Source: a candidate division WOR-3 bacterium (GTDB taxonomy: Bacteria > Hydrothermota > Tepidihabitantia > B3-TA06). From it: a stretch of 64,000 bases of DNA. Numbering within the stretch: position 1 is the first letter of the stretch; every line of letters begins with the position of its first letter. The notes beneath the pieces were generated by a model. It worked only from the letters and a program-made list of their open reading frames with translations, was not told the DNA's origin and made no database searches. Shown piece by piece: positions 47,217-63,527 of the stretch. Location of the stretch: the NCBI GenBank assembly GCA_965649265.1, contig CBFGKC010000013.1, positions 26,879 through 90,878 on the forward strand, written 5' to 3'. The position numbers and the translations under genes are program-made.

Positions 47217-47352
47217 CACCAAAGAAATAAGATTTAATATTCTTTTTACTCTTTTCGTCTACGGTTAAAAGTTCCAAAAGTATCCAGAAATATATCTCTA
47301 GACACATCAATATAGCCGATAGTATCTTTTATGCTAATTATTTTAAAGGGTA

Positions 47353-47380
47353 TTGACAAGATATAAGCAGAGTATATAAT
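47353..47380 (+). promoter_or_regulatory. consensus sigma70 promoter upstream of the paralog array
   Basis: Exact TTGACA (47353-58), 16-nt spacer, TATAAT (47375-80) in an AT-rich region. Confidence 0.8.
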
Positions 47381-47437
47381 CTCCGTGAAATAGAATCCAT
47401 TTACAGATTCTTTTTACGAAAATTTTTTGGAGGAGAA

Positions 47438-47674
47438 ATGCACGACGAAAAAAAGAATCTTTTAAAAATGCGCAGCCGGGTTGATGCGTCAAGGGCGGCT
47501 CTCAAGTGCTGCAAGCGTTTCTCGAAAACCTCTCGTTTACGCGATCAGATTTCTTCTCTGTTCCCAAAAAATGTAGCAAAAACATTGTTTTTTATCAAAT
47601 TTTTTCAAATCAATTTGTTATGCTTTCCGGAAGTCTGGGGTGATTTGGAATGTCTTCGAACATCAAAGATCTGA
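47438..47674 (+). CDS. possible leader ORF, 78 aa, unrelated to the array family
   Basis: GGAGGAG SD just before the ATG, downstream of the promoter; no recognisable motif. Confidence 0.3.
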   Translation: MHDEKKNLLKMRSRVDASRAALKCCKRFSKTSRLRDQISSLFPKNVAKTLFFIKFFQINLLCFPEVWGDLECLRTSKI

Positions 47675-47747
47675 CTGATTCACATCTGGGGTCGTAAAAA
47701 CCGGGCGTTCTGAGGAGGAGCATTAACTCTTTAACAAAGGAGTAGAA

Positions 47748-48188
47748 ATGTCAAAAATCAGAACACTGACCCTCATCCTCTCAGCAATCATACTGTTCGC
47801 GGCAACCCCGATAATGGCCCAGCTTGCCGGTACGTGGGCCGGCACAGGCACGGGCATTGCCTATCCACCGTCGGGAGCAATCATATATCCCTGGCAAAAC
47901 TGGAAGGGCGCTATTCCTGCGACAGAAACATCCTTCAAGGGCGACTGGTGGGATGCAGACGGCCATTCCGGCACGTTCGAGGGTAAACAGGTCCCTTCGC
48001 CCATACCCGAGGAAAGGGTATTTCAGGGAACCTGGGTGCTGATTGACCCGTCAGGAATCTCCGCCAAATCCGGCGATTTCGAGATGCATTTCTTATTCAT
48101 TGAAGGAACCTGCAAGGGAACCTGGACCTCCATCTGGCCGTCATCGATCTCCGGCGGAACCATGAAAGGCGAAAGAGTAGACGACTGA
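47748..48188 (+). CDS. array family A copy 1, secreted Trp/Gly-rich protein
   Basis: Signal peptide; GTWAG, PWQNWKG, GDW.D.DG, GTF, GDF.M.F, CKGTW, GTMKG. Confidence 0.88.
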   Translation: MSKIRTLTLILSAIILFAATPIMAQLAGTWAGTGTGIAYPPSGAIIYPWQNWKGAIPATETSFKGDWWDADGHSGTFEGKQVPSPIPEERVFQGTWVLIDPSGISAKSGDFEMHFLFIEGTCKGTWTSIWPSSISGGTMKGERVDD

Positions 48189-48225
48189 CCAGGCTTCTTG
48201 AAGAAGCAAGTCAAGGAGAATTACC

Positions 48226-48672
48226 ATGAAAAGAAAACTTCTCGTTGCCGCGCTCGCGGCAGCAGTGCTTCTGGCTGCAAGCCCGGCATTCGCCCATCTC
48301 TCGGGTGCCTGGGAGGGAACGGGAACCGGGTATTGCTATCCGAGAAGCAGCATAATCATCTATCCATGGCAGGATTGGCAGGGTCAGATACCCAATGCCG
48401 CCAACTCTTTCACCGGCACATGGAATGACGCGCTGGGAAACCACGGCACATTTAAGGGTTCGCCCGCACCTTCCATTCCTGAGATTGCCGTATTTAAGGG
48501 AACGTGGACATGGTTCGACCCCGACGGCTCATCCACGATACCGGTCTACGGCGGTGATTTCACGATGACCTTCTATATTTTAGACGACACATGCGCCGGG
48601 ACTTGGACAACAATCTGGCCCACGCCGTATAAGGTCGGAACAATGAGAGGAGCCTGGGTTACGCCCGACTGA
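48226..48672 (+). CDS. array family A copy 2
   Basis: Same motif series; SD AAGGAG. Confidence 0.88.
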   Translation: MKRKLLVAALAAAVLLAASPAFAHLSGAWEGTGTGYCYPRSSIIIYPWQDWQGQIPNAANSFTGTWNDALGNHGTFKGSPAPSIPEIAVFKGTWTWFDPDGSSTIPVYGGDFTMTFYILDDTCAGTWTTIWPTPYKVGTMRGAWVTPD

Positions 48673-48825
48673 CGAATAGAACGATGCTTTATTTAATCAC
48701 TAAAAAAGAGCGCTCAGTCACGGTCGAAGAAATGGAATCCGCGATCCGCGGCTGAGAGCAATAATGTAGCGGGGGGAAGTGGCTTCCACCTCCCCCCCGG
48801 CTTCAAAAAATGCTAAGGAGGAGAA

Positions 48826-49272
48826 ATGATAAAATCAACAAATGCGAAGGCAATGTTCAGCGCCGTCGTGCTGATTCTTGGTGTGCTGATCGTGACGCCG
48901 GCTCTGGCGCAGCCCGCGGGCCGCTGGATCGGAACAGGTTCGGGCAGCACCACCCCCCCCTCCCTCGATCCTTCTCAGGAGCCGATACACCCATGGCAGG
49001 AATGGAAGGCCGATTTCATTGACGGCGTCTTCCTGGGCGTATGGCTGGACAAAGATGAGAACTACGGTCAGTTCAATGCCAAGATGGTCTCATCCACCCC
49101 GACAACGGCAACCTACAAGGGAACCTGGTCATGGCTCGCCCCCTCGGGCTGGCTCGTCGAGATAGGGGAGTTCAAAATGACTTTCAAGATAGACGAGTGG
49201 CTCTGCTACGGAGAATGGACGACAAATTACAATTCAGATGGTGGAACGATGGAGGGAGAGAGAACGGAATGA
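48826..49272 (+). CDS. array family A copy 3
   Basis: Same motif series; SD AAGGAGG. Confidence 0.88.
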   Translation: MIKSTNAKAMFSAVVLILGVLIVTPALAQPAGRWIGTGSGSTTPPSLDPSQEPIHPWQEWKADFIDGVFLGVWLDKDENYGQFNAKMVSSTPTTATYKGTWSWLAPSGWLVEIGEFKMTFKIDEWLCYGEWTTNYNSDGGTMEGERTE

Positions 49273-49315
49273 ACGCCGGAATAAACCGGCATTCATAAAA
49301 ACGCAAGGAGGAGAA

Positions 49316-49696
49316 ATGAAACGCATCCTCATAGCCGCAGCGATAGCGGTATGCATAATGCCCGCAATGCTTATGGGCAGCTTATTCATCACAAGCCCTG
49401 CAGCAGATACTTCATGGAAAATATGGACCTATCACGACATCACATGGACATGGACAGGCAATACACCTGACAGCTTCGTAATAGAGTGGCTTGAAAACAT
49501 ACCAGGGCACTACCACTGGTTACCCATAGTTACGGTATTAGGTACTTATAACAGTTACAACTGGTATGTAGGTTCGGGGCTCTTCCACGTACCCGTCTGT
49601 CCCTATCCAGATGCTCTCGTAAAGATACGCGTCTTCGATGATGGAGGTCTAATCGATTACGCCATTTCCGACGGATTCCTCATCCATAACTACTGA
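49316..49696 (+). CDS. array family B copy 1, secreted Ig-like (Kre9/Knh1-N-like) domain
   Basis: Signal peptide; ITSP...W...ITW...Y.W.V...SD.F.I; start re-called at the SD-linked ATG. Confidence 0.8.
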   Translation: MKRILIAAAIAVCIMPAMLMGSLFITSPAADTSWKIWTYHDITWTWTGNTPDSFVIEWLENIPGHYHWLPIVTVLGTYNSYNWYVGSGLFHVPVCPYPDALVKIRVFDDGGLIDYAISDGFLIHNY

Positions 49697-49802
49697 GGAT
49701 ACTTGATACTTGAAATAAGAATAGAAGGAAAGATTTCTAAGAGGAACTTTTGTTGAAGTAGATAACAAAAGGACGAGGAGGCCTAACAAACAGAAAGGAG
49801 AG

Positions 49803-50261
49803 ATGATGAATCTCAAAAAGACTCTTACTCTGTTCGTTGCGATCTTCATTATTGCCGCGACACCTGTTTTTGCCCAGCCGAACGGGACCTGGGCTGGTGG
49901 CGGCGAGGGCTGGTGCCCTTATCCCGTACCCTACCCCGGCGATTACATGAAGCCGTGGCAGAACTGGAAGGGCATTGTCGAAAACGAGGAAGTGTTTTAT
50001 GGAGACTGGTGGGATGCCGGCGACAATTCCGGAACCTTCAAAGGCACCGTGACTATTATCTCGAGTTATGAGGCTTACTCCGAAGGCGAATGGTACTGGA
50101 TCGACTACAGATACGATCCGCCTCAATACCACTATATGGGAACCTTCTCGATGAAATTCAAGTACCCTATGACCAGTTTGCCTTACTGCTATGGAGAATG
50201 GCAGGGATACGTGCCCTCAGGCATCTACACCGGGACCATGAAAGGAAAACTGGTTGATTGA
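49803..50261 (+). CDS. array family A copy 4
   Basis: Same motif series. Confidence 0.88.
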   Translation: MMNLKKTLTLFVAIFIIAATPVFAQPNGTWAGGGEGWCPYPVPYPGDYMKPWQNWKGIVENEEVFYGDWWDAGDNSGTFKGTVTIISSYEAYSEGEWYWIDYRYDPPQYHYMGTFSMKFKYPMTSLPYCYGEWQGYVPSGIYTGTMKGKLVD

Positions 50262-50367
50262 ATAGAAGACAAGTCTTTAACCTGTTCATTTTGTATGACT
50301 GCGATTGAAAAACGGAAAAGAGTAGGTGGCTAATAAACCCCTCAACCTAAATACGATGGAGGAAAAC

Positions 50368-50820
50368 ATGAAAAACTCAAGGACCCTGATCATGCTGCTG
50401 GCGAGCCTTGTCGTCCTTGCGGCGACTCCGCTTATGGCCCAATCACTCCCTGGCAACTGGGAAGGCACCGGCGATGGAATATGCCCGCCGCCATGGCCGT
50501 CGACTACACCTTTGATGATGAATCCCTGGCAAAACTGGGCCGGCCAGATTCCGGCCACCGGAACAAGATTCAGCGGAGAGTGGCACGATGACGCCGGCTT
50601 TGACGGCAACTTCAGCGGGACAATAGAGATATCTTCGGTAACCTACGCCACATGCAATGGTGAATGGACTGCAATAAATCGCAGCGTCAATCCACCTCAG
50701 GAATACGTCATGGGCGCTTTTACCATGCGTTTCTACTATGCAGACCTAACGTGTAATGGTGAATGGTATTCGGCGAGCGCCGTCTACAGCGGAACCATGA
50801 ACGGCGAAAAGGTCGATTGA
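50368..50820 (+). CDS. array family A copy 5
   Basis: Same motif series; start re-called at the ATG after GGAGG. Confidence 0.88.
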   Translation: MKNSRTLIMLLASLVVLAATPLMAQSLPGNWEGTGDGICPPPWPSTTPLMMNPWQNWAGQIPATGTRFSGEWHDDAGFDGNFSGTIEISSVTYATCNGEWTAINRSVNPPQEYVMGAFTMRFYYADLTCNGEWYSASAVYSGTMNGEKVD

Positions 50821-51482
50821 TCGGGATCCTGACAAGGGTTCTCGCGCAAAAGCGATAAACGACGGTCAAGAATTAGTGGAAACCTGTAAACAACAAAAAC
50901 CAAGAAATGGACAGGAAAACCATAAAACCTCGATCATCTATGGAGGAAACAATGAAAAGCTCGAAAGCGTTGATGGTGCTTCTCGTGGTCGTAGTAGCCA
51001 TTGCTGCAACCCCGCTTGGAGCTCAATTTCTTGCGGGAACATGGAAAGGAACTGGAGACGGAGCATGTATTCCGCCGTTCCCTACCCCTGTCCCCGACTC
51101 GATGTTCCCATGGCAAAACTGGGTGGGCGAGATACCTGACTCAGAAACCGTAATGACGGGTACTTGGCACGACGTATCAGGCTATACGGGCAATTTCAGC
51201 GGAGACATAATCCTTGCCGGGCCTCTCTACGCCATATGTAATGGCATGTGGTTGGTCTTGAATCCGTTCGTCACGCCTCCGTCTCAGACAGTAGGTGGAA
51301 GCTTCACAATGCGCTTATACTACGGAACGCAGACATGTGAAGGTGAATGGTATTCTGTAGGCGGTACATACAGTGGAACAATGGAAGGTGAGAAAGACTA
51401 GTGATCAGGCTCCTGACCCGGTTTTCGCGTGATGGCGTTAAACGACGGTCAAGAATTCGTGGAGGCCTGCAAACAACAAAAA
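50818..51482 (+). repeat. about 80-bp imperfect intergenic direct repeat (50818-50899 and 51402-51482)
   Basis: Both copies contain TCCTGAC, an identical TAAACGACGGTCAAGAATT, and AAACAACAAAAA. Confidence 0.8.
50952..51401 (+). CDS. array family A copy 6
   Basis: Same motif series; close to copies 5 and 8. Confidence 0.88.
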   Translation: MKSSKALMVLLVVVVAIAATPLGAQFLAGTWKGTGDGACIPPFPTPVPDSMFPWQNWVGEIPDSETVMTGTWHDVSGYTGNFSGDIILAGPLYAICNGMWLVLNPFVTPPSQTVGGSFTMRLYYGTQTCEGEWYSVGGTYSGTMEGEKD

Positions 51483-51497
51483 ATAAGGAGAAGCATA

Positions 51498-51953
51498 ATG
51501 AATCTCAAAAAGACACTCACCCTGCTTGCCGTGATATTCATCATTTCGGCGACACCGTTGGCAGCCGACCTCTGGGGAACCTGGGCCGGCACCGGTGAAG
51601 GTAACTGCTATCCCCATCCCGGTGTAGTGATATACCCCTGGCAGAGCTGGAAAGGTGAGGTTTACACTTCGCCCGACCAGGATGCACCGATTTTCGAAGG
51701 CGAATGGTATGACGAACTCGGCAATCACGGCACTTTCAAGGGTAACATCTACTACCCTCCAATTGAGGAAGAGGCAATTGCCGAAGGCGAATGGACATGG
51801 TACGATCCTGACGGAATATCCCCCCAGCCCACGGTCGGCGGTAAATTCCAGATGACCTTCTATTTCCTTGAGGACTACTGCATCGGGAAAAGGACAACCA
51901 TATGGCCGTCCACCGGCGCAGTAGGCAGCATGGAAGGCAAGGATCAAGACTAG
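51498..51953 (+). CDS. array family A copy 7
   Basis: Same motif series; the last GxW reads GKR. Confidence 0.86.
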   Translation: MNLKKTLTLLAVIFIISATPLAADLWGTWAGTGEGNCYPHPGVVIYPWQSWKGEVYTSPDQDAPIFEGEWYDELGNHGTFKGNIYYPPIEEEAIAEGEWTWYDPDGISPQPTVGGKFQMTFYFLEDYCIGKRTTIWPSTGAVGSMEGKDQD

Positions 51954-52042
51954 AAAAGCGATAAGTTATGAGGGTGGGGCACCGCCCTCATACTCGTAAA
52001 AAAGCTGTAAAAGCATGAATCATCGATTCGATGGAGGAAAAA

Positions 52043-52495
52043 ATGAAAAGATCAAAAGCATTGATGGTGTTTCTCGTGGCCGTGGTGGCCATTGCAGCAA
52101 CACCGCTTATGGCTCAGTCACTCCCCGGAATTTGGAAGGGAACTGGCGACGGAGTATGTCCTCCGCCTTTTCCAACCCCCCTGCCCGTCATGATGAATCC
52201 GTGGGAGAACTGGAAGGGCGAGATACCCAACACGGGAACAGCATTCAAGGGTACGTGGTACGACAGTCCGGGATACTACGGTAACTTCCACGGCGACATT
52301 CTGCTTTCGACACCGACTTATGCGGTATGCAACGGTGAGTGGAGCGTTACCAATCCATATACCATACCTCCCACCGAGGTAGTAATGGGAAACTTCACCA
52401 TGCGTTTCTACTACGCCACTCTTACGTGCAAGGGTGAATGGTATTCGTCGAGCAACGTCTACCACGGAACCATGAAAGGCGAGAAAGTCGAATAA
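52043..52495 (+). CDS. array family A copy 8
   Basis: Same motif series. Confidence 0.88.
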   Translation: MKRSKALMVFLVAVVAIAATPLMAQSLPGIWKGTGDGVCPPPFPTPLPVMMNPWENWKGEIPNTGTAFKGTWYDSPGYYGNFHGDILLSTPTYAVCNGEWSVTNPYTIPPTEVVMGNFTMRFYYATLTCKGEWYSSSNVYHGTMKGEKVE

Positions 52496-52554
52496 AAAAC
52501 CGGCTCCGGGGGCGCAAGCCCCCGGAGCACTAAAAACGACTCAAGGAGGAGAAA

Positions 52555-52920
52555 ATGAAACGTCTCATTATTGCAGCATCTATAGCTGTGTGCATGTTGC
52601 CGGCAATGGCTTCGGCGACACTGGTCGTAATCTCTCCGGACGGCAATGATACATGGAGAGCCATGACAACCGAGACAATCGAATGGACATACTCCGGCGA
52701 AACACCGGACTCCTTTCAAATAGTGTGGCTGGAGGTCGGCACCGAGAATCGTTATATCATCGATTACGTCGACGGGAATGCAAGGGAATACGATTGGCTC
52801 GTTGGAAACCCGTGCATTCACGCAATCTTGGAACCCATTCAGGCTGTCGTCTTCGTTAACGCAGTAGATATTGAAGTAGATCAATCGGACACGTTCACAA
52901 TCATACCTTACCGTTGGTAA
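52555..52920 (+). CDS. array family B copy 2, secreted Ig-like domain
   Basis: MKRLIIAASIAVCMLPAM leader and TPDSF.I.WLE shared with B1. Confidence 0.8.
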   Translation: MKRLIIAASIAVCMLPAMASATLVVISPDGNDTWRAMTTETIEWTYSGETPDSFQIVWLEVGTENRYIIDYVDGNAREYDWLVGNPCIHAILEPIQAVVFVNAVDIEVDQSDTFTIIPYRW

Positions 52921-53011
52921 TGAAAAGGAGGCAAAGCTCCAAACAAAAGAGGCAAGAATTTGCCTGTTCGACAGCCGATCATAAAACACACAATCATCAA
53001 AGGAGTAAAGG

Positions 53012-53422
53012 ATGCGTAAATCGATTTTGACAATAGCAATCCTAGGAATATTGCTCGGAACGATGCCTGCGTTCGCACACTTCACGGGATTCTGGGAGGG
53101 AACAGGAACCGGTACGCTGCCTGTTCCGCCGGTCGTAATTAACCCCTGGCAATTCTGGGGCGGGAATATAACCGCCGATCACCTGGTCTTCTACGGGGAC
53201 TGGAATGATGCCGCAACCGCCGGAACGTTCAAAGGCTCGCTCGTTAGCATGTCGAGCGATGTGGCCGTTTACAAGGGCTACTGGTACTGGAACGAGAAAC
53301 CTGACAAAACGATGGGCGACTTCAAGATGACCTTCTACTGGAACAACGGCGTTTGCTACGGCGAATGGCACTCCTTTGATCCGGCTGGTTTCTCGGGAAC
53401 GATGACGGGCGATAGATGGTAA
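53012..53422 (+). CDS. array family A copy 9
   Basis: Same motif series, short loops. Confidence 0.88.
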   Translation: MRKSILTIAILGILLGTMPAFAHFTGFWEGTGTGTLPVPPVVINPWQFWGGNITADHLVFYGDWNDAATAGTFKGSLVSMSSDVAVYKGYWYWNEKPDKTMGDFKMTFYWNNGVCYGEWHSFDPAGFSGTMTGDRW

Positions 53423-53456
53423 GAGAAAACGACTAAAAAAATTAAAAGGAGTAACG

Positions 53457-53921
53457 ATGAAAAAGATAATACTTGTCGCTATTGCGGTTTTGATGCTTGC
53501 AGGAGTGACGCCGGCATTAGCTCAACCCGTCGGAACGTGGTCCGGCGAGGGTGATGGCTGGTGCCCATTTCCCGTACCGTACCCATCGGAGTACATGAAG
53601 CCATGGCAGACATGGAAAGGTCGCTTTGAGCCCAACCCGGAAGAGATAGGATACATATTCTATGGAGAGTGGCACGACGGAGACGGCAATTACGGCACCT
53701 TCAAAGGTGAAGCCATACTGGGAACACCCACCGAGATTTCTTGTACGGGAACCTGGACCTGGTGGGACGAACGCCTTGACCCTCCCCGGGTCTACGAGAT
53801 GGGAAATTTCACCATGCTCTTTCGGCGAGACGGGAGTTCCTGCGAAGGCGACTGGTACGACACTATCGATCCCAGCGGGATATATCACGGCACGATGAAA
53901 GGCTACTGGGTAGAACCCTGA
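53457..53921 (+). CDS. array family A copy 10
   Basis: Same motif series; close to copy 18. Confidence 0.88.
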   Translation: MKKIILVAIAVLMLAGVTPALAQPVGTWSGEGDGWCPFPVPYPSEYMKPWQTWKGRFEPNPEEIGYIFYGEWHDGDGNYGTFKGEAILGTPTEISCTGTWTWWDERLDPPRVYEMGNFTMLFRRDGSSCEGDWYDTIDPSGIYHGTMKGYWVEP

Positions 53922-53963
53922 GAACTGGAAAAATGCAACTCCCGGATGAATTAAGGAGTAACG

Positions 53964-54380
53964 ATGCGTAAGGTTTTATTCGCAACGGCGTTTATTCTCT
54001 TGACCGCCATACCCGTTTTTGCTCAGCTTGCCGGCACCTGGAACGGCGAGGGCACAGGCACCTGCGATTTCTACGGAACCCTTCTGCGTCCGTGGGAAAC
54101 ATGGACGGGGACAATCCCTGCCACTGAAGATTCGTTCACGGGCATCTGGTCCGACGGCCTGGGAAACTCGGGCACTTTCTTCAACACCAATATCGAAGTC
54201 ATAAGTGACGATATCGTCGTAATTGAAGGCAGATGGACGCTCACGATTCCAGACGGTCTAAAAAAGCTGGGTACTTTCAAAATAACCTTCTACACGCACA
54301 ACCGCGTTTGCTACGGCGAGTGGGACAGTCCATTTCCCACCGTTCCGCCCAGAACGATATACGGCAAAGTGGTATGGTGA
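53964..54380 (+). CDS. array family A copy 11
   Basis: Same motif series, short loops. Confidence 0.86.
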   Translation: MRKVLFATAFILLTAIPVFAQLAGTWNGEGTGTCDFYGTLLRPWETWTGTIPATEDSFTGIWSDGLGNSGTFFNTNIEVISDDIVVIEGRWTLTIPDGLKKLGTFKITFYTHNRVCYGEWDSPFPTVPPRTIYGKVVW

Positions 54381-54421
54381 CCGCAGCCGCTTTGCTCGTT
54401 CATTGATTGAAAGGAGAAAAC

Positions 54422-54859
54422 ATGAGATGCTTTAGCAAAATTTCCATGGCATCCCTTGCGATGATAGTTATCGTTGCAGCTGCTCCGCTCGCGGCGCAGG
54501 TTGCCGGCGCATGGGGCGGAGTAGGAGACGGCGAAGCCTACCCGCCGACAGGTGATATCATCTATCCCTGGCAAAACTGGACAGGCGAGATTCCTACCGA
54601 CGAGGAAACCTTTTCAGGCAGCTGGTGGGATGCTGACGGCAGCCACGGCACGTTCTACGGAGTACAGGGACCGTCCATCTCTCCCGTAATCGCAGTCTTC
54701 TCAGGAACCTGGACCTGGGAAAACTCCGACGAAATAGTCAAGGGAGGCGAATTCACGATGAATTTCTACCTCCTTTACGGAACCTGCTCCGGAACGTGGA
54801 CCTCAGTATGGCCTTCGCCCGGCACTCCCGGAACGATGAAAGGCGAAAAGTTAGATTAG
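54422..54859 (+). CDS. array family A copy 12
   Basis: Same motif series; start re-called. Confidence 0.88.
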   Translation: MRCFSKISMASLAMIVIVAAAPLAAQVAGAWGGVGDGEAYPPTGDIIYPWQNWTGEIPTDEETFSGSWWDADGSHGTFYGVQGPSISPVIAVFSGTWTWENSDEIVKGGEFTMNFYLLYGTCSGTWTSVWPSPGTPGTMKGEKLD

Positions 54860-55024
54860 CAAGTGAATTCGGCCTTTGGCTGAACCCTCCCCCCGGGGGT
54901 CTCAATACCCCCGGGGGCATGAATCTTCAAGGAACCAGGCAAGGTGACTGGATGGAAAACTAGCAAAAATGAAGGCGGCGTTCGTCGTTCTTCAGAACTT
55001 TAAGATGTTAGTCAAGGAGGAGAA

Positions 55025-55480
55025 ATGCGCAAAATAATACCCGTCGTTGCGGCAGCAATAATACTCTTTTGGGGAGCCCCTCTTTTTGCCGATCTTGACG
55101 GACTCTGGGAGGGTGAAGGCAAGGGCTACTGCTACCCCCCGTTCCCGACGCCTTATGCCTATACCATCTATGCCTGGCAGAAATGGTCAGGCTGCGTCGA
55201 GAACAAGGAAGTATTCTACGGAAAGTGGGAGGACGAAAAAGGAAACTACGGGCAGTTTGAAGGAAAGATACTTCCAGTGAGTCCATCGGATAAGTATGTG
55301 ATCGGTGAAGGCAAATGGACATGGTTCAACGTTTTCGGAAAGGAACCTGAGGAGATAACAATGGGTCCTTTCACAATGTATTTCTACTACAACGACGACT
55401 ACTGTGAAGGCAAGTGGTGGACCGACTACTCGCCTTCGATAAAGATCGGAACAATGACAGGAAAGAGGATTGGCGACTAA
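55025..55480 (+). CDS. array family A copy 13
   Basis: Same motif series. Confidence 0.88.
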   Translation: MRKIIPVVAAAIILFWGAPLFADLDGLWEGEGKGYCYPPFPTPYAYTIYAWQKWSGCVENKEVFYGKWEDEKGNYGQFEGKILPVSPSDKYVIGEGKWTWFNVFGKEPEEITMGPFTMYFYYNDDYCEGKWWTDYSPSIKIGTMTGKRIGD

Positions 55481-55504
55481 TAACTCAAAACATAAGGAGA
55501 AGAA

Positions 55505-55954
55505 ATGAAAACAACCAAAGCCCTGATCGTTATTGTTGTCTTGATGCTTGCAGTTGCTGCAACCCCGGCGGTTGCCCAGCTTGCTGGCGTCTGGGAAGGC
55601 ACAGGTAAAGGCAATGCCTACCCTCGCAACAGCACCGTGATCTATCCCTGGCAAAAATGGGAGGGTGAAATACCGAACACCCAGGATGTTTTTTCAGGCA
55701 CCTGGTCTGACAGCATCGGGAACCGCGGAACATTTAAGGGTGAAGTCGAGTTCTCGGCTATTCCTGAGCTTGCAAAGGCGAAAGGCTCCTGGTATTGGTT
55801 TGATCCTCTGGGCCCATCTAATGTCCCTGTGTACGGCGGTGATTTCGCCATGGATTTCTGGTTCACGATGGGTACATGCGAAGGAACCTGGACGACCATC
55901 TGGCCTTCAACAGGCGTAGTAGGAAGCATGGAAGGCTGGAAGGTCACAGACTGA
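55505..55954 (+). CDS. array family A copy 14
   Basis: Same motif series. Confidence 0.88.
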   Translation: MKTTKALIVIVVLMLAVAATPAVAQLAGVWEGTGKGNAYPRNSTVIYPWQKWEGEIPNTQDVFSGTWSDSIGNRGTFKGEVEFSAIPELAKAKGSWYWFDPLGPSNVPVYGGDFAMDFWFTMGTCEGTWTTIWPSTGVVGSMEGWKVTD

Positions 55955-56018
55955 TTCGAAGCGCAGTACAAAGAGGGGGTGGTCCCGCCCCCTCGCGACT
56001 TCTCAGCTAGGAGGAACA

Positions 56019-56474
56019 ATGCGTAAAGCTATGTTTTCGGCAATCGCCCTGGCGCTTCTTGCATCCGCGACATCGTCGTCTGCGCAGCTTCTGGGTATAT
56101 GGGCAGGTGAAGGCAAAGGCAGTTGCTATCCATATTCAGATTGCGAAATCTTTCCATGGCAGAACTGGAAAGGCGTGGTTTACTATCCCGACGATGCCAA
56201 AAAACCTGTTTTCGTGGGTGAATGGTTTGATGCCGAGGGAAATCACGGAACCTTCTTCGGCAAGAATTACCCGACACCCATAGAGGAGTACTATCTCTTC
56301 AAGGGCGAATGGACCTGGTACGATCCGGCATCAAAAACGGCCGAACCGGTCGTCGGCGGAAATTTCGAGATGAAGTTCTACTTCATTGCAGGAACATCGA
56401 GCGGCTTCTGGGATACCGAATGGCCCTCGCCCTCGGAACAGGGCACCATGTGGGGCAAATGGGAGGGTGAATAA
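56019..56474 (+). CDS. array family A copy 15
   Basis: Same motif series; lacks the usual last Cys and has two in loop 1. Confidence 0.88.
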   Translation: MRKAMFSAIALALLASATSSSAQLLGIWAGEGKGSCYPYSDCEIFPWQNWKGVVYYPDDAKKPVFVGEWFDAEGNHGTFFGKNYPTPIEEYYLFKGEWTWYDPASKTAEPVVGGNFEMKFYFIAGTSSGFWDTEWPSPSEQGTMWGKWEGE

Positions 56475-56519
56475 AACGAGAGACGGCATCGTCGTCTCAT
56501 AACCCGATAAGGAGTAACA

Positions 56520-56960
56520 ATGCGTAAAGTGATCGTTTCGGCAATCGCGCTCGCGCTCATCCTTGGAGCGAGTCCGGCTCCGGCACAGGTCGCCGGCACA
56601 TGGGTGGGCACGGGCGATGGCAACGCCTACCCTCATCCCGGAGTAGTAATCCATCCCTGGCAGCAGTGGAAGGGTGAGATTCCGGATGCACAAGACGTGT
56701 TTTCGGGCGAATGGTCCGATGGAGACGGCAACCACGGCATTTTCAAAGGTTCGCCTGTGCCGTCCATACCGGAAGTCGTCGTATTCAAGGGCGAATGGTA
56801 CTGGTACGACCCAGATGGGTTTTCCGATCAGCCCGTGCTCGGCGGCGACTTCGAGATGACCTTCCATTTTATGGGTGAATACTGGTGTGAAGGTACATGG
56901 ACATCGGTATGGATATCCTCCAGTTCTGACAAGGGAACCATGAAGGGCTGGAAGGATTAG
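56520..56960 (+). CDS. array family A copy 16
   Basis: Same motif series. Confidence 0.88.
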   Translation: MRKVIVSAIALALILGASPAPAQVAGTWVGTGDGNAYPHPGVVIHPWQQWKGEIPDAQDVFSGEWSDGDGNHGIFKGSPVPSIPEVVVFKGEWYWYDPDGFSDQPVLGGDFEMTFHFMGEYWCEGTWTSVWISSSSDKGTMKGWKD

Positions 56961-57024
56961 GTGAAGACGGCAAATCGAGATGGACACGTGCACATATCGA
57001 TCACAAACAAAAAAGGAGAAACCA

Positions 57025-57471
57025 ATGCGTAAATCACTCACGACAATAGTCGCGGCAATGCTTTTGATTGCCGCCGTTCCGGCTCTGGCGCAGCTGGATG
57101 GAAACTGGAAAGGCGAAGGAAAGGGTGTCTGCTCACCGCCGATAGGAACTACCGATTTTCCGATCTATGCATGGCAAACATGGAAAGGCGAGATCAACGG
57201 CGACGATTTCTGGGGCAGCTGGAGCGACGAAAACGGCAGATACGGCAACTTCAAGGGTACAATCCTCTGGGTAAGCGAAGAGGAAGCGTACGCCGAAGGC
57301 GAATGGACCTGGGTTTACGGCCCCGACTCCGATCCTCCTCAGGAGTATCTCATGGGTCCTTTCCAGATGAATTTCGTTCATTTCCCAGTAGAGACGCCGT
57401 ACTGCTACGGCAAGTGGCAGACTTATTACAGCGATGAAGCGGGAACCATGAAAGGCAGGATGATATTCTGA
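57025..57471 (+). CDS. array family A copy 17
   Basis: Same motif series; start re-called. Confidence 0.88.
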   Translation: MRKSLTTIVAAMLLIAAVPALAQLDGNWKGEGKGVCSPPIGTTDFPIYAWQTWKGEINGDDFWGSWSDENGRYGNFKGTILWVSEEEAYAEGEWTWVYGPDSDPPQEYLMGPFQMNFVHFPVETPYCYGKWQTYYSDEAGTMKGRMIF

Positions 57472-57526
57472 AAGGGTTTAACAGGATGCGTTGAAGTCGA
57501 ACGCGCAACATAAAAAAGGAGTAGAA

Positions 57527-57991
57527 ATGCGTAAGATACTTTTGGCCGCTCTCGCGGCGGCACTCGTTATCGGTGTGACACCGGCTTTTGCCCAGCCCGA
57601 AGGAACATGGGACGGAACGGGCGACGGCTGGTGTCCTTATCCGATATTCTCCACGCCGGGTGACACGATGTTCCCCTGGCAGGAATGGAAAGGACGTTTT
57701 GAACCTGATCCCAACGGAACGGGTTACATCTTTTACGGAAACTGGCACGATCAAAGACTCAATCAAGGGACTTTCAGCGGCAGCGCGATTCTGGGAACCC
57801 CGACCGAAATAGGCTGCAACGGGGACTGGTACTGGCTTGATGAGCGGGTTGATCCACCTGTATCTCGTTACATGGGTACTTTCACAATGACCCTGAGGCG
57901 GGACGGAAGTTATTGCCACGGAACATGGATAACGACCGTTTTTCCTGCCGTCTACCGGGGCACAATGGAAGGAGCATGGGTCGAACCGTGA
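57527..57991 (+). CDS. array family A copy 18
   Basis: Same motif series; start re-called. Confidence 0.88.
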   Translation: MRKILLAALAAALVIGVTPAFAQPEGTWDGTGDGWCPYPIFSTPGDTMFPWQEWKGRFEPDPNGTGYIFYGNWHDQRLNQGTFSGSAILGTPTEIGCNGDWYWLDERVDPPVSRYMGTFTMTLRRDGSYCHGTWITTVFPAVYRGTMEGAWVEP

Positions 57992-58043
57992 TCGATCACG
58001 ATCCGGTTTTAAACCGCTCCAAAAAGACTGAAAAGGAGAAAAC

Positions 58044-58481
58044 ATGCGCAAGATATTACTTGTCGTTATCGCCGCATTGTTCCTTGTTGCTGCAACACCG
58101 CTCCTTGCCCAGATCTCAGGCCCGTGGGAAGGCACCGGTACAGGTGCCTGCCCCCCGCCCTTCCCCTCTCCGTCGAAAGCAATGGGACCCTGGCGTTACT
58201 GGACGGGTGAAATCCCCGATGACGAAACAACATTCTCGGGTGTCTGGCAGGACGACTGGGGTTTTCACGGAACGTTCTACGGCGAGGCTGTCGCGGGCAC
58301 GCCTGAAGAAGCCGTTTTTACCGGGACTTGGACGGTAATAGACGATGCCGGTGGAATGGTTTACGAGATGGGTACCTTCTATATGCACTTCCCGTACGCG
58401 GCCAGGGCATGCCACGGGGAATGGTGGAACTATAACAGCGACTTGGCCCAGGGAACCATGACCGGCCACAGAGTTGACTGA
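58044..58481 (+). CDS. array family A copy 19
   Basis: Same motif series; close to copy 22. Confidence 0.88.
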   Translation: MRKILLVVIAALFLVAATPLLAQISGPWEGTGTGACPPPFPSPSKAMGPWRYWTGEIPDDETTFSGVWQDDWGFHGTFYGEAVAGTPEEAVFTGTWTVIDDAGGMVYEMGTFYMHFPYAARACHGEWWNYNSDLAQGTMTGHRVD

Positions 58482-58550
58482 TTGAAAAGCCTATATGGCA
58501 AGTGGCGAACCAGTCGCCTCGAGAACACAAAAACTTGAAAGGAGAAAAAA

Positions 58551-58997
58551 ATGCGTAAAACAGCTATAACGGTGCTTGCATTAATCCTTGTGCTTGCCGC
58601 AGCGCCGCTTGCGGCACAGATTGCTGGAACCTGGCAAGGAGGAGGAGACGGTGTATGTTCTCCCCCGCCCTTCTGGCCTTCAGACATTCCTATCTATGCC
58701 TGGCAGTCGTGGACCGGCGAAATACCGGCATCTGAGAGTTCATTCAAAGGAGAATGGCACGACGAACTCGGTAAATTCGGGTACTTCTCCGGGACAATGA
58801 TTGCACAATCGTTGACTGAGGTCTACTGCGAAGGCACATGGACATGGGTATACAATCCCGACGTTGATCCTCCCCAGGAGTACACAATGGGTCCCTTCTC
58901 GATGTGGTTCCATAAAACCGAACTGACGTGTCGAGGCGAGTGGTCCACAAGCTACAGCAACGAGGGAGGCAGTATTTGGGGAGCGATGGTCGACTAG
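58551..58997 (+). CDS. array family A copy 20
   Basis: Same motif series. Confidence 0.88.
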   Translation: MRKTAITVLALILVLAAAPLAAQIAGTWQGGGDGVCSPPPFWPSDIPIYAWQSWTGEIPASESSFKGEWHDELGKFGYFSGTMIAQSLTEVYCEGTWTWVYNPDVDPPQEYTMGPFSMWFHKTELTCRGEWSTSYSNEGGSIWGAMVD

Positions 58998-59114
58998 GTG
59001 CCGATGGTCTATTTAAAAACGGTGTCGACAGGAATTCCAAGGTCGACCTGGAACTATCGCAGAGGGGGCTCATTCCGGGCCCCCTCTACACTAAAGACTT
59101 AGTAAGGCGGAACA

Positions 59115-59567
59115 ATGCGCAAAATTATCTTTGCAGGCCTGGCGATAGTTTTTGCTCTTGCTGCCCCGCCTGTGTTCGCCGACCCATACGACTGGTCGGG
59201 AACGGGTGATAAGATACCGTGGGAAGAATCCCCCAAGTATATCGTTTATCCGTGGTTCGAATGGTGGGGCACACTTTCTGAAGGCACGTTTGCAGGCAAC
59301 TGGGCGCCCGACACGCCGAACTATGAAGGCGGAGGCACGTTGTACCGAATCTTTTCGGGTCAAATCCTCTATTATTACACGCCGGAAGAAGGGGGCCCCA
59401 CATACGCTCACTGCGAGGGCGAATGGACGCGCCTGCACGATTACCGGGCGCAGGAGTGCGGCTGGTTCGAGATGGAGTTCAACGTGACTGATGGAACGTG
59501 CGAGGGCGTTTGGGGATTCGTTGAAGATGAAACCGTTGCCGGAAAAATGTGGGGCGGCGGGAATTGA
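59115..59567 (+). CDS. array family A copy 21 (divergent subgroup)
   Basis: DWSGTG, YPWFEWWG, HCEGEW, FEMEFN, TCEGVW. Confidence 0.85.
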   Translation: MRKIIFAGLAIVFALAAPPVFADPYDWSGTGDKIPWEESPKYIVYPWFEWWGTLSEGTFAGNWAPDTPNYEGGGTLYRIFSGQILYYYTPEEGGPTYAHCEGEWTRLHDYRAQECGWFEMEFNVTDGTCEGVWGFVEDETVAGKMWGGGN

Positions 59568-59587
59568 TCACAAAGAAAGGAGCGCAA

Positions 59588-60034
59588 ATGCGTAAACTTC
59601 TCTTGATCGCTCTGTCGGCTGCGGTCGTTTCAGGAGCAACACCTGCCCTGGCCCAGATCGCAGGCTCGTGGGAGGGCACCGGAACAGGAAGCTGCCCAAA
59701 TCCTACCTCCAATCCCGTTGAAACCATGCGTCCATGGAATATCTGGAGCGGCGAAATACCCGACGATGAATCGACCTTCTCGGGCGAGTGGCACGATCCT
59801 GCCGGAGTACATGGAACCTTTACAGGCGAAGCAACATTCGCAACACCGGAAGAAGTTGTTTTCACAGGAACATGGAATGCGATAGACGACCTTGTAGATC
59901 CTCCCGTTATCTACGAAATGGGAACCTTCTACATGCATTTCCCTTACACAGCCAGGGCATGTCACGGCGAGTGGGTGACGTATGACAGTGATATTCCTCA
60001 GGGAACCATGACCGGTCACAGAACCGACGGATGA
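59588..60034 (+). CDS. array family A copy 22
   Basis: Same motif series; start re-called. Confidence 0.88.
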   Translation: MRKLLLIALSAAVVSGATPALAQIAGSWEGTGTGSCPNPTSNPVETMRPWNIWSGEIPDDESTFSGEWHDPAGVHGTFTGEATFATPEEVVFTGTWNAIDDLVDPPVIYEMGTFYMHFPYTARACHGEWVTYDSDIPQGTMTGHRTDG

Positions 60035-60099
60035 AATTCTCTTTGATATGCGGGGCGGTCTCGGCCTCGCGAACACAAAAACCTCAACAAGGAGGAATC

Positions 60100-60525
60100 A
60101 TGCGTAAAGCACTATATGCAATCATTGCGTGCATCGCTGTGCTCGGAGCAACGCAGCTGATGGCCGAAGACTGGGCCGGCACCGGCTCGGGCTCATGGAT
60201 AAGACCTGACGGCTCCACGCTGGTGTATCCCTGGCAGGTATGGTCGGGGACGCTCGAGACCGGCGCGTTCACGGGCACATGGTCGGACGATCTCGGCAAT
60301 GCCGGCGGCTTTTCAGGCTCGATCATCTACTACTATACCTCGGTCGATCCCGGCGATACCTATGGTCACTGTGAAGGCTCATGGAACATATACGATCCGA
60401 CTGGCGTGACCATCGGCGGGCCGTTCGAGATGGAGTTCAACCTGACCCAGGGAACCTGCAAGGGTGCATGGGTACCAAAAAATGGCACCGGCAAAGGAAC
60501 GATGACCGGCGAAAGAATCGACTAG
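60100..60525 (+). CDS. array family A copy 23
   Basis: Same motif series; close to copy 21. Confidence 0.88.
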   Translation: MRKALYAIIACIAVLGATQLMAEDWAGTGSGSWIRPDGSTLVYPWQVWSGTLETGAFTGTWSDDLGNAGGFSGSIIYYYTSVDPGDTYGHCEGSWNIYDPTGVTIGGPFEMEFNLTQGTCKGAWVPKNGTGKGTMTGERID

Positions 60526-60622
60526 ACTAAAACAAGGAGTGGGAGAGAGACGCTCAAGACGTCTCTCTCTCAGGAACCGGGAGGATTGAGGAGGGATAAA
60601 CAACAAAGAAGTAGGAGGAAAG

Positions 60623-61138
60623 ATGCATAAAACAACAAAAACCGTCGTAGCCGTGCTAGGTTTCCTTGTTCTTGGACTCACGGTAGGCTTCGCTTATCCG
60701 GAGTGGTTCCACGGAACCGGTACGGGAACCTGCTATTATTCCCATGACGAGGTGATAGACACTATTGAAGTCTTCTATGCATGGCAGCTCGAGCATGTTC
60801 CCCAGACTAACGGCTTCATTGGCTGTACCTGGGACAATAACGGTCGCGGTGCCTGCCTGACGACTGCCGTATTTTTTGGCAGCGGCAATTGCGAGTATGA
60901 TGGGGGCGGATCGTGGGAACTATACAATCCTATTGTAAACGATAGTACTTCAGTGTATGACGATGGAACCCTTACATTCTGCATTGATTCTGTAAACGCA
61001 ACAATATGGACATTAAGCGGAACCTGGGTAGCCACGCAAGAATTTCTCACGGGTTCCGGCACACTTTCAGGTCACGGGCATTTTTCAGAGCCCGATGGCT
61101 GGTCATCTTGCGGGAGCTGTCCTGTCGAAGATCCGTGA
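60623..61138 (+). CDS. array family A copy 24, highly divergent and Cys-rich
   Basis: Signal peptide; GTGTGTCY, YAWQ, GCTWDNNG, GSW, SGTW, GTLSG; CGSC tail. Confidence 0.75.
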   Translation: MHKTTKTVVAVLGFLVLGLTVGFAYPEWFHGTGTGTCYYSHDEVIDTIEVFYAWQLEHVPQTNGFIGCTWDNNGRGACLTTAVFFGSGNCEYDGGGSWELYNPIVNDSTSVYDDGTLTFCIDSVNATIWTLSGTWVATQEFLTGSGTLSGHGHFSEPDGWSSCGSCPVEDP

Positions 61139-61156
61139 TGCAAAAGACTTAACATT

Positions 61157-61188
61157 TCGGGGCGGATTGTTCCGCCCCGAATTATTTA
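61157..61188 (+). terminator. hairpin closing the array
   Basis: TTCGGGGCGG-ATTGTT-CCGCCCCGAA followed by TTATTT. Confidence 0.65.
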
Positions 61189-61276
61189 AAACCAGGAAAC
61201 CCTGTCCCTTCCACATGGATTCTTCAGTCCTCTTGATTTTCACGAAGAATCGCATACAATCTTGACGGAGGCGACG

Positions 61277-61834
61277 ATGAAGACAGTCGTAGTTTATTAT
61301 TCTCGATACGGAAACTCTCGCGTGGCGGCAAAACTCATAGCCCGGCAGCTCGGGGCGCCCGTACACAACATAGAAGTAAAACGCCAGAAGGGCGTGTTCG
61401 AGTCAACCTTTTCCGCGCTTTTCAGCCGCAGGCCGAAGATAAAGTCCATGCTACTCAATTCCCAGGATTGGGATATTATGGTTCTTGTCGCTCCGATATG
61501 GATGGGGAAACCTGCGACGCCCGTCAAGACTTTCCTTGCAGATACAAGGGTCGGCGACAAACGCATTGCGGTGTTTTTCTCCTACACCAAGACCGACCCA
61601 CACGAAGCCGCAATATGGCTTAGGCGTGTTCTCGATCACTTCGGCGCTCATCTCATCGCCGTCGGCGGTTACGACACGAGCGTAAAGAATCACACCGTTC
61701 TCAAGCAGAAGGTCTGGGAGTTCCTCTCGCAGCTTCCTCCCGCCGCCATCACCGAGTCAAAACCGGCAAAGCCCCAGAAGGCGAAGCAGCAGGCTCCGGC
61801 AAAGAAAGCCGCTAAAAAGTCCCCAAAGAAGTAA
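61277..61834 (+). CDS. flavodoxin-like protein with Lys/Ala/Pro-rich tail
   Basis: VVYYSRYGNS..AKLIA, LVAPIW.G.PA.PV. Confidence 0.8.
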   Translation: MKTVVVYYSRYGNSRVAAKLIARQLGAPVHNIEVKRQKGVFESTFSALFSRRPKIKSMLLNSQDWDIMVLVAPIWMGKPATPVKTFLADTRVGDKRIAVFFSYTKTDPHEAAIWLRRVLDHFGAHLIAVGGYDTSVKNHTVLKQKVWEFLSQLPPAAITESKPAKPQKAKQQAPAKKAAKKSPKK

Positions 61835-62173
61835 TTGCACGCCCTGTTCAAGGGATGCTTTTCGCCCCTTAGGGGCGCGCGCGGGGCAATGATGTTTCTC
61901 ACCATTTTATTTAACCCATAAATTGAAGCAGCCTCTCGAACGCAAGTTCGACTCATGCGCCTTCCAGACGCTCGCTTGCCCACTTTAGTGAGGGGAGGGT
62001 CCGAACTATCACGAGAACGTCTTGATGATTTATACGATGGTTCTCTACCCTTCCCCTTCATAAGGGGGGCTTCAACACTTCCACCTACCCTCAGGGGGAG
62101 GAACAACCCTGAAGCGGTTTTTCAAACCTGATCATGAACCGTTAGACCTGAATTCTCGCGCTTTGAATAAAAA

Positions 62174-62209
62174 GGGGTCCCCATAAAATTACCTGGTAAT
62201 TTTATGGGG
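62174..62209. repeat. palindrome, family copy 6
   Basis: GGGGT then CCCCATAAAATTAC-CTG-GTAATTTTATGGGG. Confidence 0.6.
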
Positions 62210-62253
62210 AGTGGTTAGAGGGGCGAACCCCTCTTCTTTATGTTGTAATGACC

Positions 62254-63062: not shown

Positions 63063-63527
63063 ATGAAGGGGACTGAGGATTACACCACGCTCTACACGGA
63101 TGAAGATATCGCAGATACCCTTGAGATAACGCTCGGCTCGAACGTGGATACAATCAGCATACCGGGCAACGACTACTCGTGGTATGAGCAGAACATAGCG
63201 TCAAACAGCGACACCATGAACCTCAAGATAAAGAAACTATCGAGAGATGGCTTTATTCCGGTGAGCCGTGTGATGGTGCGGGAGCGCAGCGATTCGGGTC
63301 TGTTCATGATGAAGGGTAAACCGATTGCAGGTCCTGAGAAGATAGTGTTCTGTCTTTTCCAGCCGAACCCGAATCCGTTCAGTGATGCTGCCACAATAAG
63401 ATACTCCCTGCCCTATGAGACCAATGTCAGCCTCAAGGTATACGACATATCGGGTAGACTGGTCAATACCCTTGTTCAGGGCAAGGTTCAGGCCGGAGTC
63501 CATACCATCCGCTGGGAAGGTAAATGA
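63063..63527 (+). pseudogene. fragment of a FlgD/T9SS-A-CTD protein, truncated
   Basis: PNPNPF...IRYSLP...LKVYDISGRLV...HTIRWEGK-stop; no signal peptide; the domain stops before the usual GVYF motif. Confidence 0.5.

Follow-up and report, generated by a model that had tools for sequence, protein, structure and literature searches.

Homogeneous polyimmunity loci, as described in the available text of Zhang et al. 2012 (PMC3482391), are tandem sets of SUKH, Imm6, Imm11 and similar paralogues that are co-oriented and probably polycistronic, have no adjacent toxin, vary in number and occupy one main locus. Strings of type VII secretion system (T7SS) immunity paralogues (EsaG, TsaI and TipC), those of TsaI and TipC being exported or membrane proteins, are likewise in print, according to the available part of PMC9484751. 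An array that shares the gene organization given for polyimmunity loci in the available text, with tandem, co-oriented and diverged paralogues, no adjacent toxin and a variable copy number, is present in a candidate division WOR-3 bacterium (assembly GCA_965649265.1), within a 64,000-nucleotide stretch of contig CBFGKC010000013.1 (positions 26,879 to 90,878) that is hereafter called the window. The array lies at window positions 47748-61138 and encodes, alongside two odd genes, 24 members of an unrecognized family of small proteins that are predicted to be exported and to fold into a soluble eight-stranded β-barrel. The 24 proteins may form a panel of binding modules in which a fixed core carries many different surfaces.

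According to an open reading frame (ORF) survey, the array consists of 26 intact plus-strand ORFs of 121-171 aa that lie head to tail with intergenic gaps of 20-165 nt. All 26 genes carry a Shine-Dalgarno (SD) sequence, AGGAG or GGAGG, 5-9 nt 5' of an ATG, and all 26 encode a signal-peptide-like N-terminus in which two to three Lys/Arg residues are followed by at least nine uncharged residues. An initial annotation of the window had listed 26 consecutive plus-strand genes with ribosome-binding sites and Sec signals and without frameshifts, and this description is borne out; among the gene starts, those of array genes 8 and 20 were corrected to the SD-preceded ATGs at 51498 and 57527. In the 24 barrel-family members, [A/V/L/I/S/G]-x-A precedes the mature part, and by these sequence criteria the barrel proteins would be exported by Sec. 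The lipobox pattern matches once among the 26 genes, within the hydrophobic run (h-region) of gene 25, and none of the 26 has a plausible lipobox. Array-gene numbering counts the two odd genes, A and B, and family numbering skips them, such that barrel gene 4 is array gene 5.

The 24 family members can be aligned across the full domain, with nine invariant columns, a further 14 columns that are at least 90% conserved, and a mean pairwise identity of 0.38 (range 0.16-0.68). None contains an internal stop, and the copies are therefore strongly diverged yet intact, as had been claimed. The motifs GxWxGxGxG, PWQxW, FxGxWxD, GxF, GxW, GxFxM, CxGxW and GTMxG are common to all members, and the consensus drawn up earlier stands apart from two deviations in CxGxW: array gene 8 has R in place of the W that is kept by the other 23 copies, and array gene 17 lacks the Cys. 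This Cys, present in 23 of the 24 copies and the sole Cys of the mature domain in six of them, appears to belong to the core instead of contributing to a disulfide, because it has the same inward register as the Phe of the other odd strands. The mature proteins are 113-146 aa long and consist of the barrel only, with no further domain; they are rich in Trp (6.7%), Gly (14%) and Thr (9.7%), and all copies are acidic, with isoelectric points (pI) of 4.1-5.3.

The earlier statement that the family is unrecognized is upheld at the level of sequence. None of the 24 barrel members matches Pfam in a listing up to E=10, the 10 proteins scanned against NCBIfam gave no match, and a profile search of PDB sequences returned only noise at E>6. 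A language-model atlas, whose matches were treated as reliable only from a level of 0.9, gave matches of 0.90 or less with few shared features, to clusters that include an OAA lectin, part-avidin clusters, DUF6006 and Calycin_like. Among 1,835,955,588 representative proteins, a profile search identified 74 relatives at E<=1e-3, nearly all of them 90-190 aa long and of the same build, and a word-indexed search found 34 relatives, of which none has a Pfam domain and the named ones are 'hypothetical protein' entries from Candidatus Stahlbacteria or candidate division WOR-3 bacteria. No tblastn match to the family was found in phages and plasmids. In the papers searched on Stahlbacteria and WOR-3, including the available text of a genome survey whose supplements may hold gene-family tables (PMC12542636), such arrays were not found to be mentioned.

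The mature domain of gene 1 was modelled with AlphaFold2 from a 24-row alignment, with a predicted local distance difference test score (pLDDT) of 93.3 and a predicted TM-score (pTM) of 0.86. The model is that of a soluble, closed, up-and-down β-barrel with eight strands, at residues 3-11, 26-31, 37-43, 49-57, 64-74, 80-91, 96-102 and 111-118. When the alignment is placed on these strands, the inward face carries conserved residues that are 50% hydrophobic or aromatic and 39% Gly (entropy 0.73 bits), whereas the outward face is 66% polar or charged (2.58 bits), a distribution that in the model is that of a soluble barrel built around a core of Trp/Phe/Met/Gly and opposite to that of membrane barrels. 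Variability extends to the loops at both barrel ends (2.0-3.1 bits), of which loop 1 is the longest and most variable in length (13-20 residues); where loop residues are conserved, as in D..GN and DP, they are of kinds that typically form turns. No conserved polar cluster of catalytic appearance is present in the family. A fourfold origin from hairpins is visible by eye in the Phi-x-G-x-W pattern of the odd strands; it lacks statistical support, as an alignment of the N half against the C half with hhalign gave a probability of 2.5% over 9 aligned columns.

Fold searches of this model gave no match at E<=1e-3 either against the PDB with Foldseek or against the viral models of BFVD. The nearest Foldseek neighbours, to which the modelled barrel bears a fold-level resemblance only, are the NHBA C-domain (query TM-score, TMq, 0.58; E 2.5e-3), lobes of TbpB (0.52-0.66), Cap15 (0.57), the designed barrels b10/b11 (0.53-0.57), a quinohemoprotein amine dehydrogenase domain (0.54), PagP (0.54), hemophilin (0.52), nitrobindin (0.46) and lipocalins (0.37-0.44). 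Avidin is not among the 50 Foldseek matches listed.

Selection on the copies was assessed with a quick maximum-likelihood tree of 92 domains, in which 18 of 89 inner branches are starred, and with nonsynonymous (dN) and synonymous (dS) divergence. Fourteen copies of the source genome (G000) pair one-to-one on the tree with copies of the sister species G001, and lineage-specific duplications are also present, such as those of window family members 19/22 and 5/6/8. Synonymous sites are saturated between G000 and G001, with a dN of 0.10-0.39, compared with 0.06-0.20 for five flanking genes. Within genus g3, where dS is 0.2-1.1, nine reciprocal-best family pairs have a dN/dS of 0.21-0.48 and flanking genes of the same genomes 0.02-0.15; constraint on the barrel copies is thus evident, though weaker by a factor of two to four than on the adjacent housekeeping genes. 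When seven g3 pairs are pooled, dN/dS is 0.04 at inward sites, 0.61 at outward sites and 0.36 in loops. At surface positions, identity is 0.63 within the 14 ortholog pairs, compared with 0.23 for 276 paralog pairs, a contrast that is inflated because the ortholog pairs were picked from the tree by similarity. The array had been proposed to be a selected, genome-encoded repertoire, and the overall dN/dS, the framework value of 0.04, which is clearly not near 1, and the 14 one-to-one pairs agree with this: it is a maintained repertoire and not junk.

The source genome is 2.74 Mb in size and 96% complete, and the 13.4-kb array constitutes about 0.5% of it. In addition to the 24 array copies, distant copies lie outside the array: two tandem barrel genes whose products both have a signal peptide, some 4 kb ahead of the window (C13:21963-23072, minus strand; E=3e-7 and 7e-5 to the array profile), a mini-array of three 133-aa members on contig C2 (L013:4670-6307, minus strand) and a solitary 163-aa member on contig C11 (L014:4800-5291), such that the genome holds about 30 genes of the barrel superfamily. 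Across the phylum, 12 of 272 genomes have a match, comprising all 11 genomes of one taxonomic family, G000 included, and one weak match (E=1.2e-4) elsewhere; a search of 41 genomes of relatives gave the same picture. Homologues also sit in arrays, with 3, 3, 5, 6, 6, 11, 13, 19 and 24 copies in the loci that are bounded on both sides, the array of the source genome being the largest of these.

On one side of the arrays there is always a gene for a putatively exported HEAT-repeat protein of 931 aa, and on the other a flavodoxin-like gene. Both flanks were confirmed in the genomes of six relatives and the HEAT side only in a seventh, and 7 of 11 metagenome loci have at least one flanking gene, three of them being bounded on both sides. 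In the window the HEAT gene lies at 44421-47216; its product begins with a signal-peptide-like segment, contains numerous repeats of GNDxY type and carries its HEAT repeats at the C-terminus. In another family, one genome possesses a 76% identical HEAT gene with no barrel gene within the following 1.5 kb, and since HEAT homologues occur in families without the array, no functional link between the two is indicated. The claim that no integrase, transposase, reverse transcriptase or toxin gene flanks the array agrees with a Pfam search of 20 flanking window ORFs, a subset of those in the window.

Mis-assembly of the array is unlikely, because any two copies are at most 0.70 identical in DNA over the body (0.79 over the 5' part) and because independent contigs of a relative, which come from three runs of a single other study and are for the most part 90-95% identical to the window, contain genes 7-13 and 15-25 in the same order. 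Strains differ in content: a relative's contig (90-95% identical) joins 60570 directly to 61228 and thus lacks gene 26, and in the same runs another sequence replaces about 48704-49849, which holds gene 3 and odd gene A. In 18 of 24 genes the best partner by 5' region differs from that by body, as exchange at gene junctions might produce, although the 5' regions are short and only 0.61-0.79 identical. No pseudogene relic better than E=2 was found in 14 intergenic stretches.

The array probably forms one operon with a single transcript, given a conserved promoter, a terminator-like hairpin and no enrichment of promoter-like sites (16, compared with 11.3 +/- 3.3 in shuffles). The putative sigma-70-like promoter upstream of gene 1 matches the consensus at 12/12 positions and is presumed to be active; its TTGACA (-35) box, the SD and an ATG align in five of six upstream regions of relatives, where this ATG is the start of the first barrel gene. 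In the source genome, however, the aligned ATG opens a 78-aa ORF, with SD, inside a 360-nt leader. The SD and first codons of this ORF align with the first array gene of four relatives and then diverge, and its remainder has no match to the barrel family, suggesting that it is probably the decayed start of a lost ancestral first gene, now serving as leader. The terminator-like hairpin, found by a consensus scan, has 11 pairs, 8 of them G-C, and a T-rich tail, and begins 18 nt past the last gene. A second hairpin, between array gene 9 and odd gene B, has a perfect 11-bp GC-rich stem and a T-run on the minus strand only, where no gene lies, and could be an RNA processing or stability element. 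Rfam has no matches in 46500-62500.

The array is tentatively read as a co-transcribed and selected panel of exported, non-enzymatic binding modules, a reading to which we give somewhat less than an even chance; protective neutralization is a first guess at its role. Binding modules are suggested by the fixed and filled core, the lack of a catalytic-looking cluster, the polar surfaces that are specific to each paralogue and conserved among orthologues, and the one promoter. One operon, with a sigma-70-like promoter, 26 genes that each have their own ribosome-binding site and one terminator, would yield a mixture of some 24 distinct soluble barrels, all of them small, acidic and exported by Sec, in which a stable scaffold with an invariant core would present many surfaces, each tuned to its own target. 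The targets are probably macromolecular rather than small ligands, because it is the outside that varies and not the lining of a pocket. LpxB is encoded in the window, and the host would therefore have an outer membrane and make lipid A; as the barrels have neither a lipobox nor the tail of the type IX secretion system (T9SS), the periplasm would be their likeliest compartment. The structure of the genes, the family, the modelled fold, the pattern of selection, the synteny and the variation in copy number are established directly, whereas we infer binding function, operon status, export and compartment; the class of target is a guess.

The T9SS candidate was rejected on the finding that none of the 24 barrel members has a Por_Secre_tail or CHU_C sorting domain. 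Proteins with C-terminal FlgD_ig or Por_Secre_tail sorting domains are encoded at 5616-7739 and 63063-63527 of the window, which suggests that a route of T9SS type serves part of the organism's exported proteins, the barrel family not among them.

The first guess at a role is that the barrels may neutralize harmful proteins entering the periplasm, for instance lytic enzymes, peptidases or effectors of foreign origin, and the array would then correspond to a homogeneous polyimmunity locus whose products are exported. It is prompted by the polyimmunity-like behaviour of the genes, the likeness to TsaI and TipC, and one fusion to an inhibitor domain: a 288-aa exported protein of an Opitutales metagenome-assembled genome (P0050; L017:8001-8867) contains both a proteinase-inhibitor domain, BsuPI (Pfam E=4e-20), and a distantly related barrel (E=2e-9) and belongs to a cluster of 43 members. 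A bolder form, that this is the first homogeneous polyimmunity-type locus built on an exported β-barrel scaffold, with about 24 periplasmic neutralizing binders that share an ultra-stable Trp/Gly core, each with its own conserved recognition surface, and with a copy number (3 to 24) that follows the threats met by each species, is speculative and unlikely.

Several findings weigh against the protective reading. In the flanks and genomes inspected, the array has no linked gene for a binding partner, a toxin, a peptidase, a receptor or a transporter, no toxin domain lies beside the window copies, the outlying copies or those of relatives, no recombinase adjoins the locus, and no member of the family has been tied to a toxin. 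The functions proposed earlier, as ligand scavengers, decoys or immunity proteins, thus gain no support from linked genes. PADLOC gave no match for the 7 array proteins scanned. The source genome has no rearrangement hotspot (RHS) repeats and no type VI secretion system (T6SS) sheath gene, such that any immunity would be aimed at foreign weapons only. The BsuPI fusion is a single distant lineage with uninformative neighbouring genes. No site class has a dN/dS above 1, the outward class included, and there is thus no sign of positive selection at the level of classes. The inflated ortholog-paralog contrast counts on the same side, as does the vertical inheritance of many old copies with orthologues across a genus, which implies a turnover slower than that of typical conflict loci.

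The alternative that fares best, although unlikely, is that the barrels are carriers of small ligands of calycin, avidin or hemophilin type, holding a common hydrophobic ligand or cofactor within the barrel or at one of its ends, which would account for the invariant interior, while their exteriors dock partners or drift. The nearly invariant, aromatic-rich interior is in keeping with this, as are the ligand-binding fold neighbours (hemophilin, nitrobindin, Cap15 and the designed fluorogen-binding barrels), language-model matches below 0.9 to avidin-containing clusters (16-27% of members), DUF6006 and Calycin_like, and the N-terminal GxWxGxGxG-YP motif, which we take to resemble the start of nitrobindin. 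The sequence pattern, however, would pack about 12 large inward side chains plus Gly into a 120-residue barrel, leaving little room for a cavity, and a shared ligand leaves 24 distinct, ortholog-conserved surfaces unexplained. No receptor or transporter gene is adjacent, and no avidin, lipocalin or THAP4 match was found in Pfam up to E=10. Membership of the avidin family (PF01382) was rejected, as only the language-model clusters with 16-27% PF01382 members point to it, and so was that of the lipocalin/nitrobindin (THAP4) calycins, for which TMq is 0.37-0.46 with a root-mean-square deviation of 6-10 A and PF08768 is silent in the source genome.

Less probable again is a lectin-like panel, in which Trp-rich acidic proteins would bind different oligo- or polysaccharides in the periplasm or on surfaces. 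A Trp/Gly/Thr-rich, acidic make-up like that of the barrel family is common among carbohydrate-binding proteins, and the OAA-family lectin domain PF17882 ranks first among the named language-model matches of gene 1 (score 0.86, 116 shared features). This score is under the reliable level, however, only 2 of the 10 best named matches share its family or clan, and no OAA lectin is among the 50 fold matches listed. The conserved Trp residues face inwards and are not exposed sugar platforms, and the array has no linked genes for glycoside hydrolases or sugar transporters.

A structural or bulk role, either as subunits of a surface layer or polymer or as an abundant periplasmic filler or chaperone-like protein with copy number serving dosage, is very unlikely. 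A high output would be expected from the strong consensus promoter and from the strong SD that each gene has, and the uniform acidity of the copies would also suit it, but dosage predicts near-identical copies, and the copies here differ in DNA as given above and conserve paralog-specific surfaces. The surface polymer subunits that had been suggested earlier are disfavoured, because copies that assemble through a common interface should have a conserved outer surface, whereas the modelled closed barrel has no free edge strands, its exterior being the least conserved part, with no shared interface evident.

Small eight-stranded outer-membrane proteins of OmpX, PagP or OmpW type can practically be dismissed, despite PagP being among the fold matches and the host having an outer membrane, as the polar exterior and inward hydrophobic residues are the reverse of a membrane barrel, an aromatic C-terminal residue is present in only 3 of the 24 copies, and the strands are short (6-12 residues).

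The coordinates of the array genes and of the elements at its borders are given in Table 1. The most divergent barrel copy is array gene 26, which has a Cys-rich tail. Odd genes A and B form a separate pair of putatively exported, all-β proteins. Odd gene A has no Pfam match, and the Kre9/KNH match of odd gene B (E=0.003) is below the cut-off; a homolog search with odd gene B returned 3 proteins, its own included, and its structure model (pLDDT 58.7) was too poor for a fold search. Elsewhere in the window, a 925-aa TPR-CHAT protein directly followed by a 352-aa leucine-rich-repeat protein, at 29718-33598, is reminiscent of conflict or signalling modules, and a 931-aa ORF on the minus strand at 21937-24732 has no Pfam match at E<=1e-4.

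Table 1. Features of the barrel array and its borders, in window coordinates.
Feature	Position	Strand	Basis
Putative sigma-70-like promoter, TTGACA-16-TATAAT, conserved in relatives	47353..47380	+	12/12 consensus
78-aa ORF with SD, probable relic of first gene	47438..47674	+	alignment with relatives
Barrel gene 1, 146 aa; mature domain modelled	47748..48188	+	pLDDT 93.3, 8 strands
Barrel gene 2, 148 aa	48226..48672	+	ORF and alignment
Barrel gene 3, 148 aa	48826..49272	+	ORF and alignment; ortholog in sister species G001
Odd gene A, 126 aa, putatively exported, all-β, non-barrel	49316..49696	+	43% identity to odd gene B
Array gene 5 (barrel gene 4), 152 aa	49803..50261	+	ORF and alignment
Array gene 6, barrel, 150 aa	50368..50820	+	SD-preceded ATG and alignment
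Array gene 7, barrel, 149 aa	50952..51401	+	ORF and alignment
Array gene 8, barrel, 151 aa; R for W in CxGxW	51498..51953	+	SD-preceded ATG and alignment
Array gene 9, barrel, 150 aa	52043..52495	+	ORF and alignment
GC-rich hairpin, 11-bp stem, no plus-strand T-run	52503..52528	.	hairpin scan
Odd gene B, 121 aa, putatively exported, all-β	52555..52920	+	weak Kre9/KNH Ig-like match
Array gene 11, barrel, 136 aa	53012..53422	+	ORF and alignment
Array gene 12, barrel, 154 aa	53457..53921	+	ORF and alignment
Array gene 13, barrel, 138 aa	53964..54380	+	ORF and alignment
Array gene 14, barrel, 145 aa	54422..54859	+	ORF and alignment
Array gene 15, barrel, 151 aa	55025..55480	+	ORF and alignment
Array gene 16, barrel, 149 aa	55505..55954	+	ORF and alignment
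Array gene 17, barrel, 151 aa; without Cys of CxGxW	56019..56474	+	alignment
Array gene 18, barrel, 146 aa	56520..56960	+	ORF and alignment
Array gene 19, barrel, 148 aa	57025..57471	+	ORF and alignment
Array gene 20, barrel, 154 aa	57527..57991	+	SD-preceded ATG and alignment
Array gene 21, barrel, 145 aa; recent paralog of gene 24	58044..58481	+	ORF and alignment, tree
Array gene 22, barrel, 148 aa	58551..58997	+	ORF and alignment
Array gene 23, barrel, 150 aa, divergent subtype	59115..59567	+	ortholog in sister species G001
Array gene 24, barrel, 148 aa	59588..60034	+	ORF and alignment
Array gene 25, barrel, 141 aa, divergent subtype	60100..60525	+	ORF and alignment
Array gene 26, barrel, 171 aa, most divergent, 7 Cys, C-terminal extension	60623..61138	+	absent from related strain
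Terminator-like hairpin, 11 pairs, T-rich tail	61156..61181	+	consensus scan

With 74 representative clusters in 1.84 billion proteins, the barrel family is a marker of one taxonomic family, in a phylum of which very few members have been cultured and hardly any biology is known from experiment. One minimal barrel scaffold with many surfaces constitutes a natural experiment, and the contrast between invariant core and paralog-specific surfaces can directly guide scaffold engineering and work on binding. Were the protective reading true, the idea of polyimmunity would extend to exported barrels and to an uncultured lineage.

The best structural neighbours of the family are the barrels of neisserial and Slam (type 11 secretion) cargo, namely NHBA (6cuj, 5o1r), TbpB (4o4x, 9dc4, 5kkx) and hemophilin (7rea). 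Both groups are small, closed, up-and-down and eight-stranded (TMq 0.52-0.66, E 2.5e-3 to 3e-2), and the cargo proteins are likewise exported by diderm bacteria; the identity, however, is 11-18%, with no relation at the level of sequence, and the family is a bare barrel, with no handle or ligand-binding domain ahead of it and no lipobox. Slam (PF04575) has no match in the source genome but is also silent in all 14 control genomes, and to our knowledge Slam-cargo genes do not form 24-gene arrays. Cap15 (7n34, 7n35) and the designed barrels b10 and b11 (6czj, 6czg) are minimal eight-stranded barrels of similar size (target TM-score, TMt, 0.58-0.63; TMq 0.53-0.57) that are 12-19% identical to the family. 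Cap15 is a cytoplasmic or membrane cyclic-dinucleotide receptor and effector of the cyclic oligonucleotide-based antiphage signalling system (CBASS) and is neither exported nor found in arrays, whereas b10 and b11 are artificial and share with the barrel family a reliance on inward Gly and Trp, residues on which the design rules of Dou et al. 2018 reportedly rely. Avidin, streptavidin and calycin barrels, with which periplasmic barrel inhibitors such as MliC/PliC and Inh/AprI are grouped, are likewise soluble eight-stranded meanders; they have about 100-130 residues and an interior rich in aromatic side chains, and many serve as exported binders or inhibitors. No MliC or Inh chain is among the 50 fold matches listed.

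In gene organization, the array resembles the TsaI and TipC strings of exported or membrane immunity paralogues, both being sets of diverged, co-oriented paralogues of one small protein family (PMC9484751, available part). It differs from polyimmunity loci in that its products are predicted to be exported, whereas the immunity families of PMC3482391 are, in the available text, mostly described without a signal peptide, in that it has no adjacent recombinase, unlike many such loci, in that its family is absent from Pfam and PADLOC, and in that it is inherited vertically, is syntenic and has orthologues across a genus. The lpl genes of Staphylococcus aureus are reportedly a tandem cluster of diverged, exported lipoprotein-like paralogues that evolves by duplication, loss and exchange; both clusters are tandem sets of diverged exported paralogues, but lpl is of another fold and family and encodes lipoproteins on a pathogen genomic island, whereas the barrel array has no lipobox and occupies a conserved chromosomal locus. 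Tandem arrays of exported paralogues and the minimal soluble eight-stranded barrel fold are thus already known, and what is new in this locus is the sequence family.

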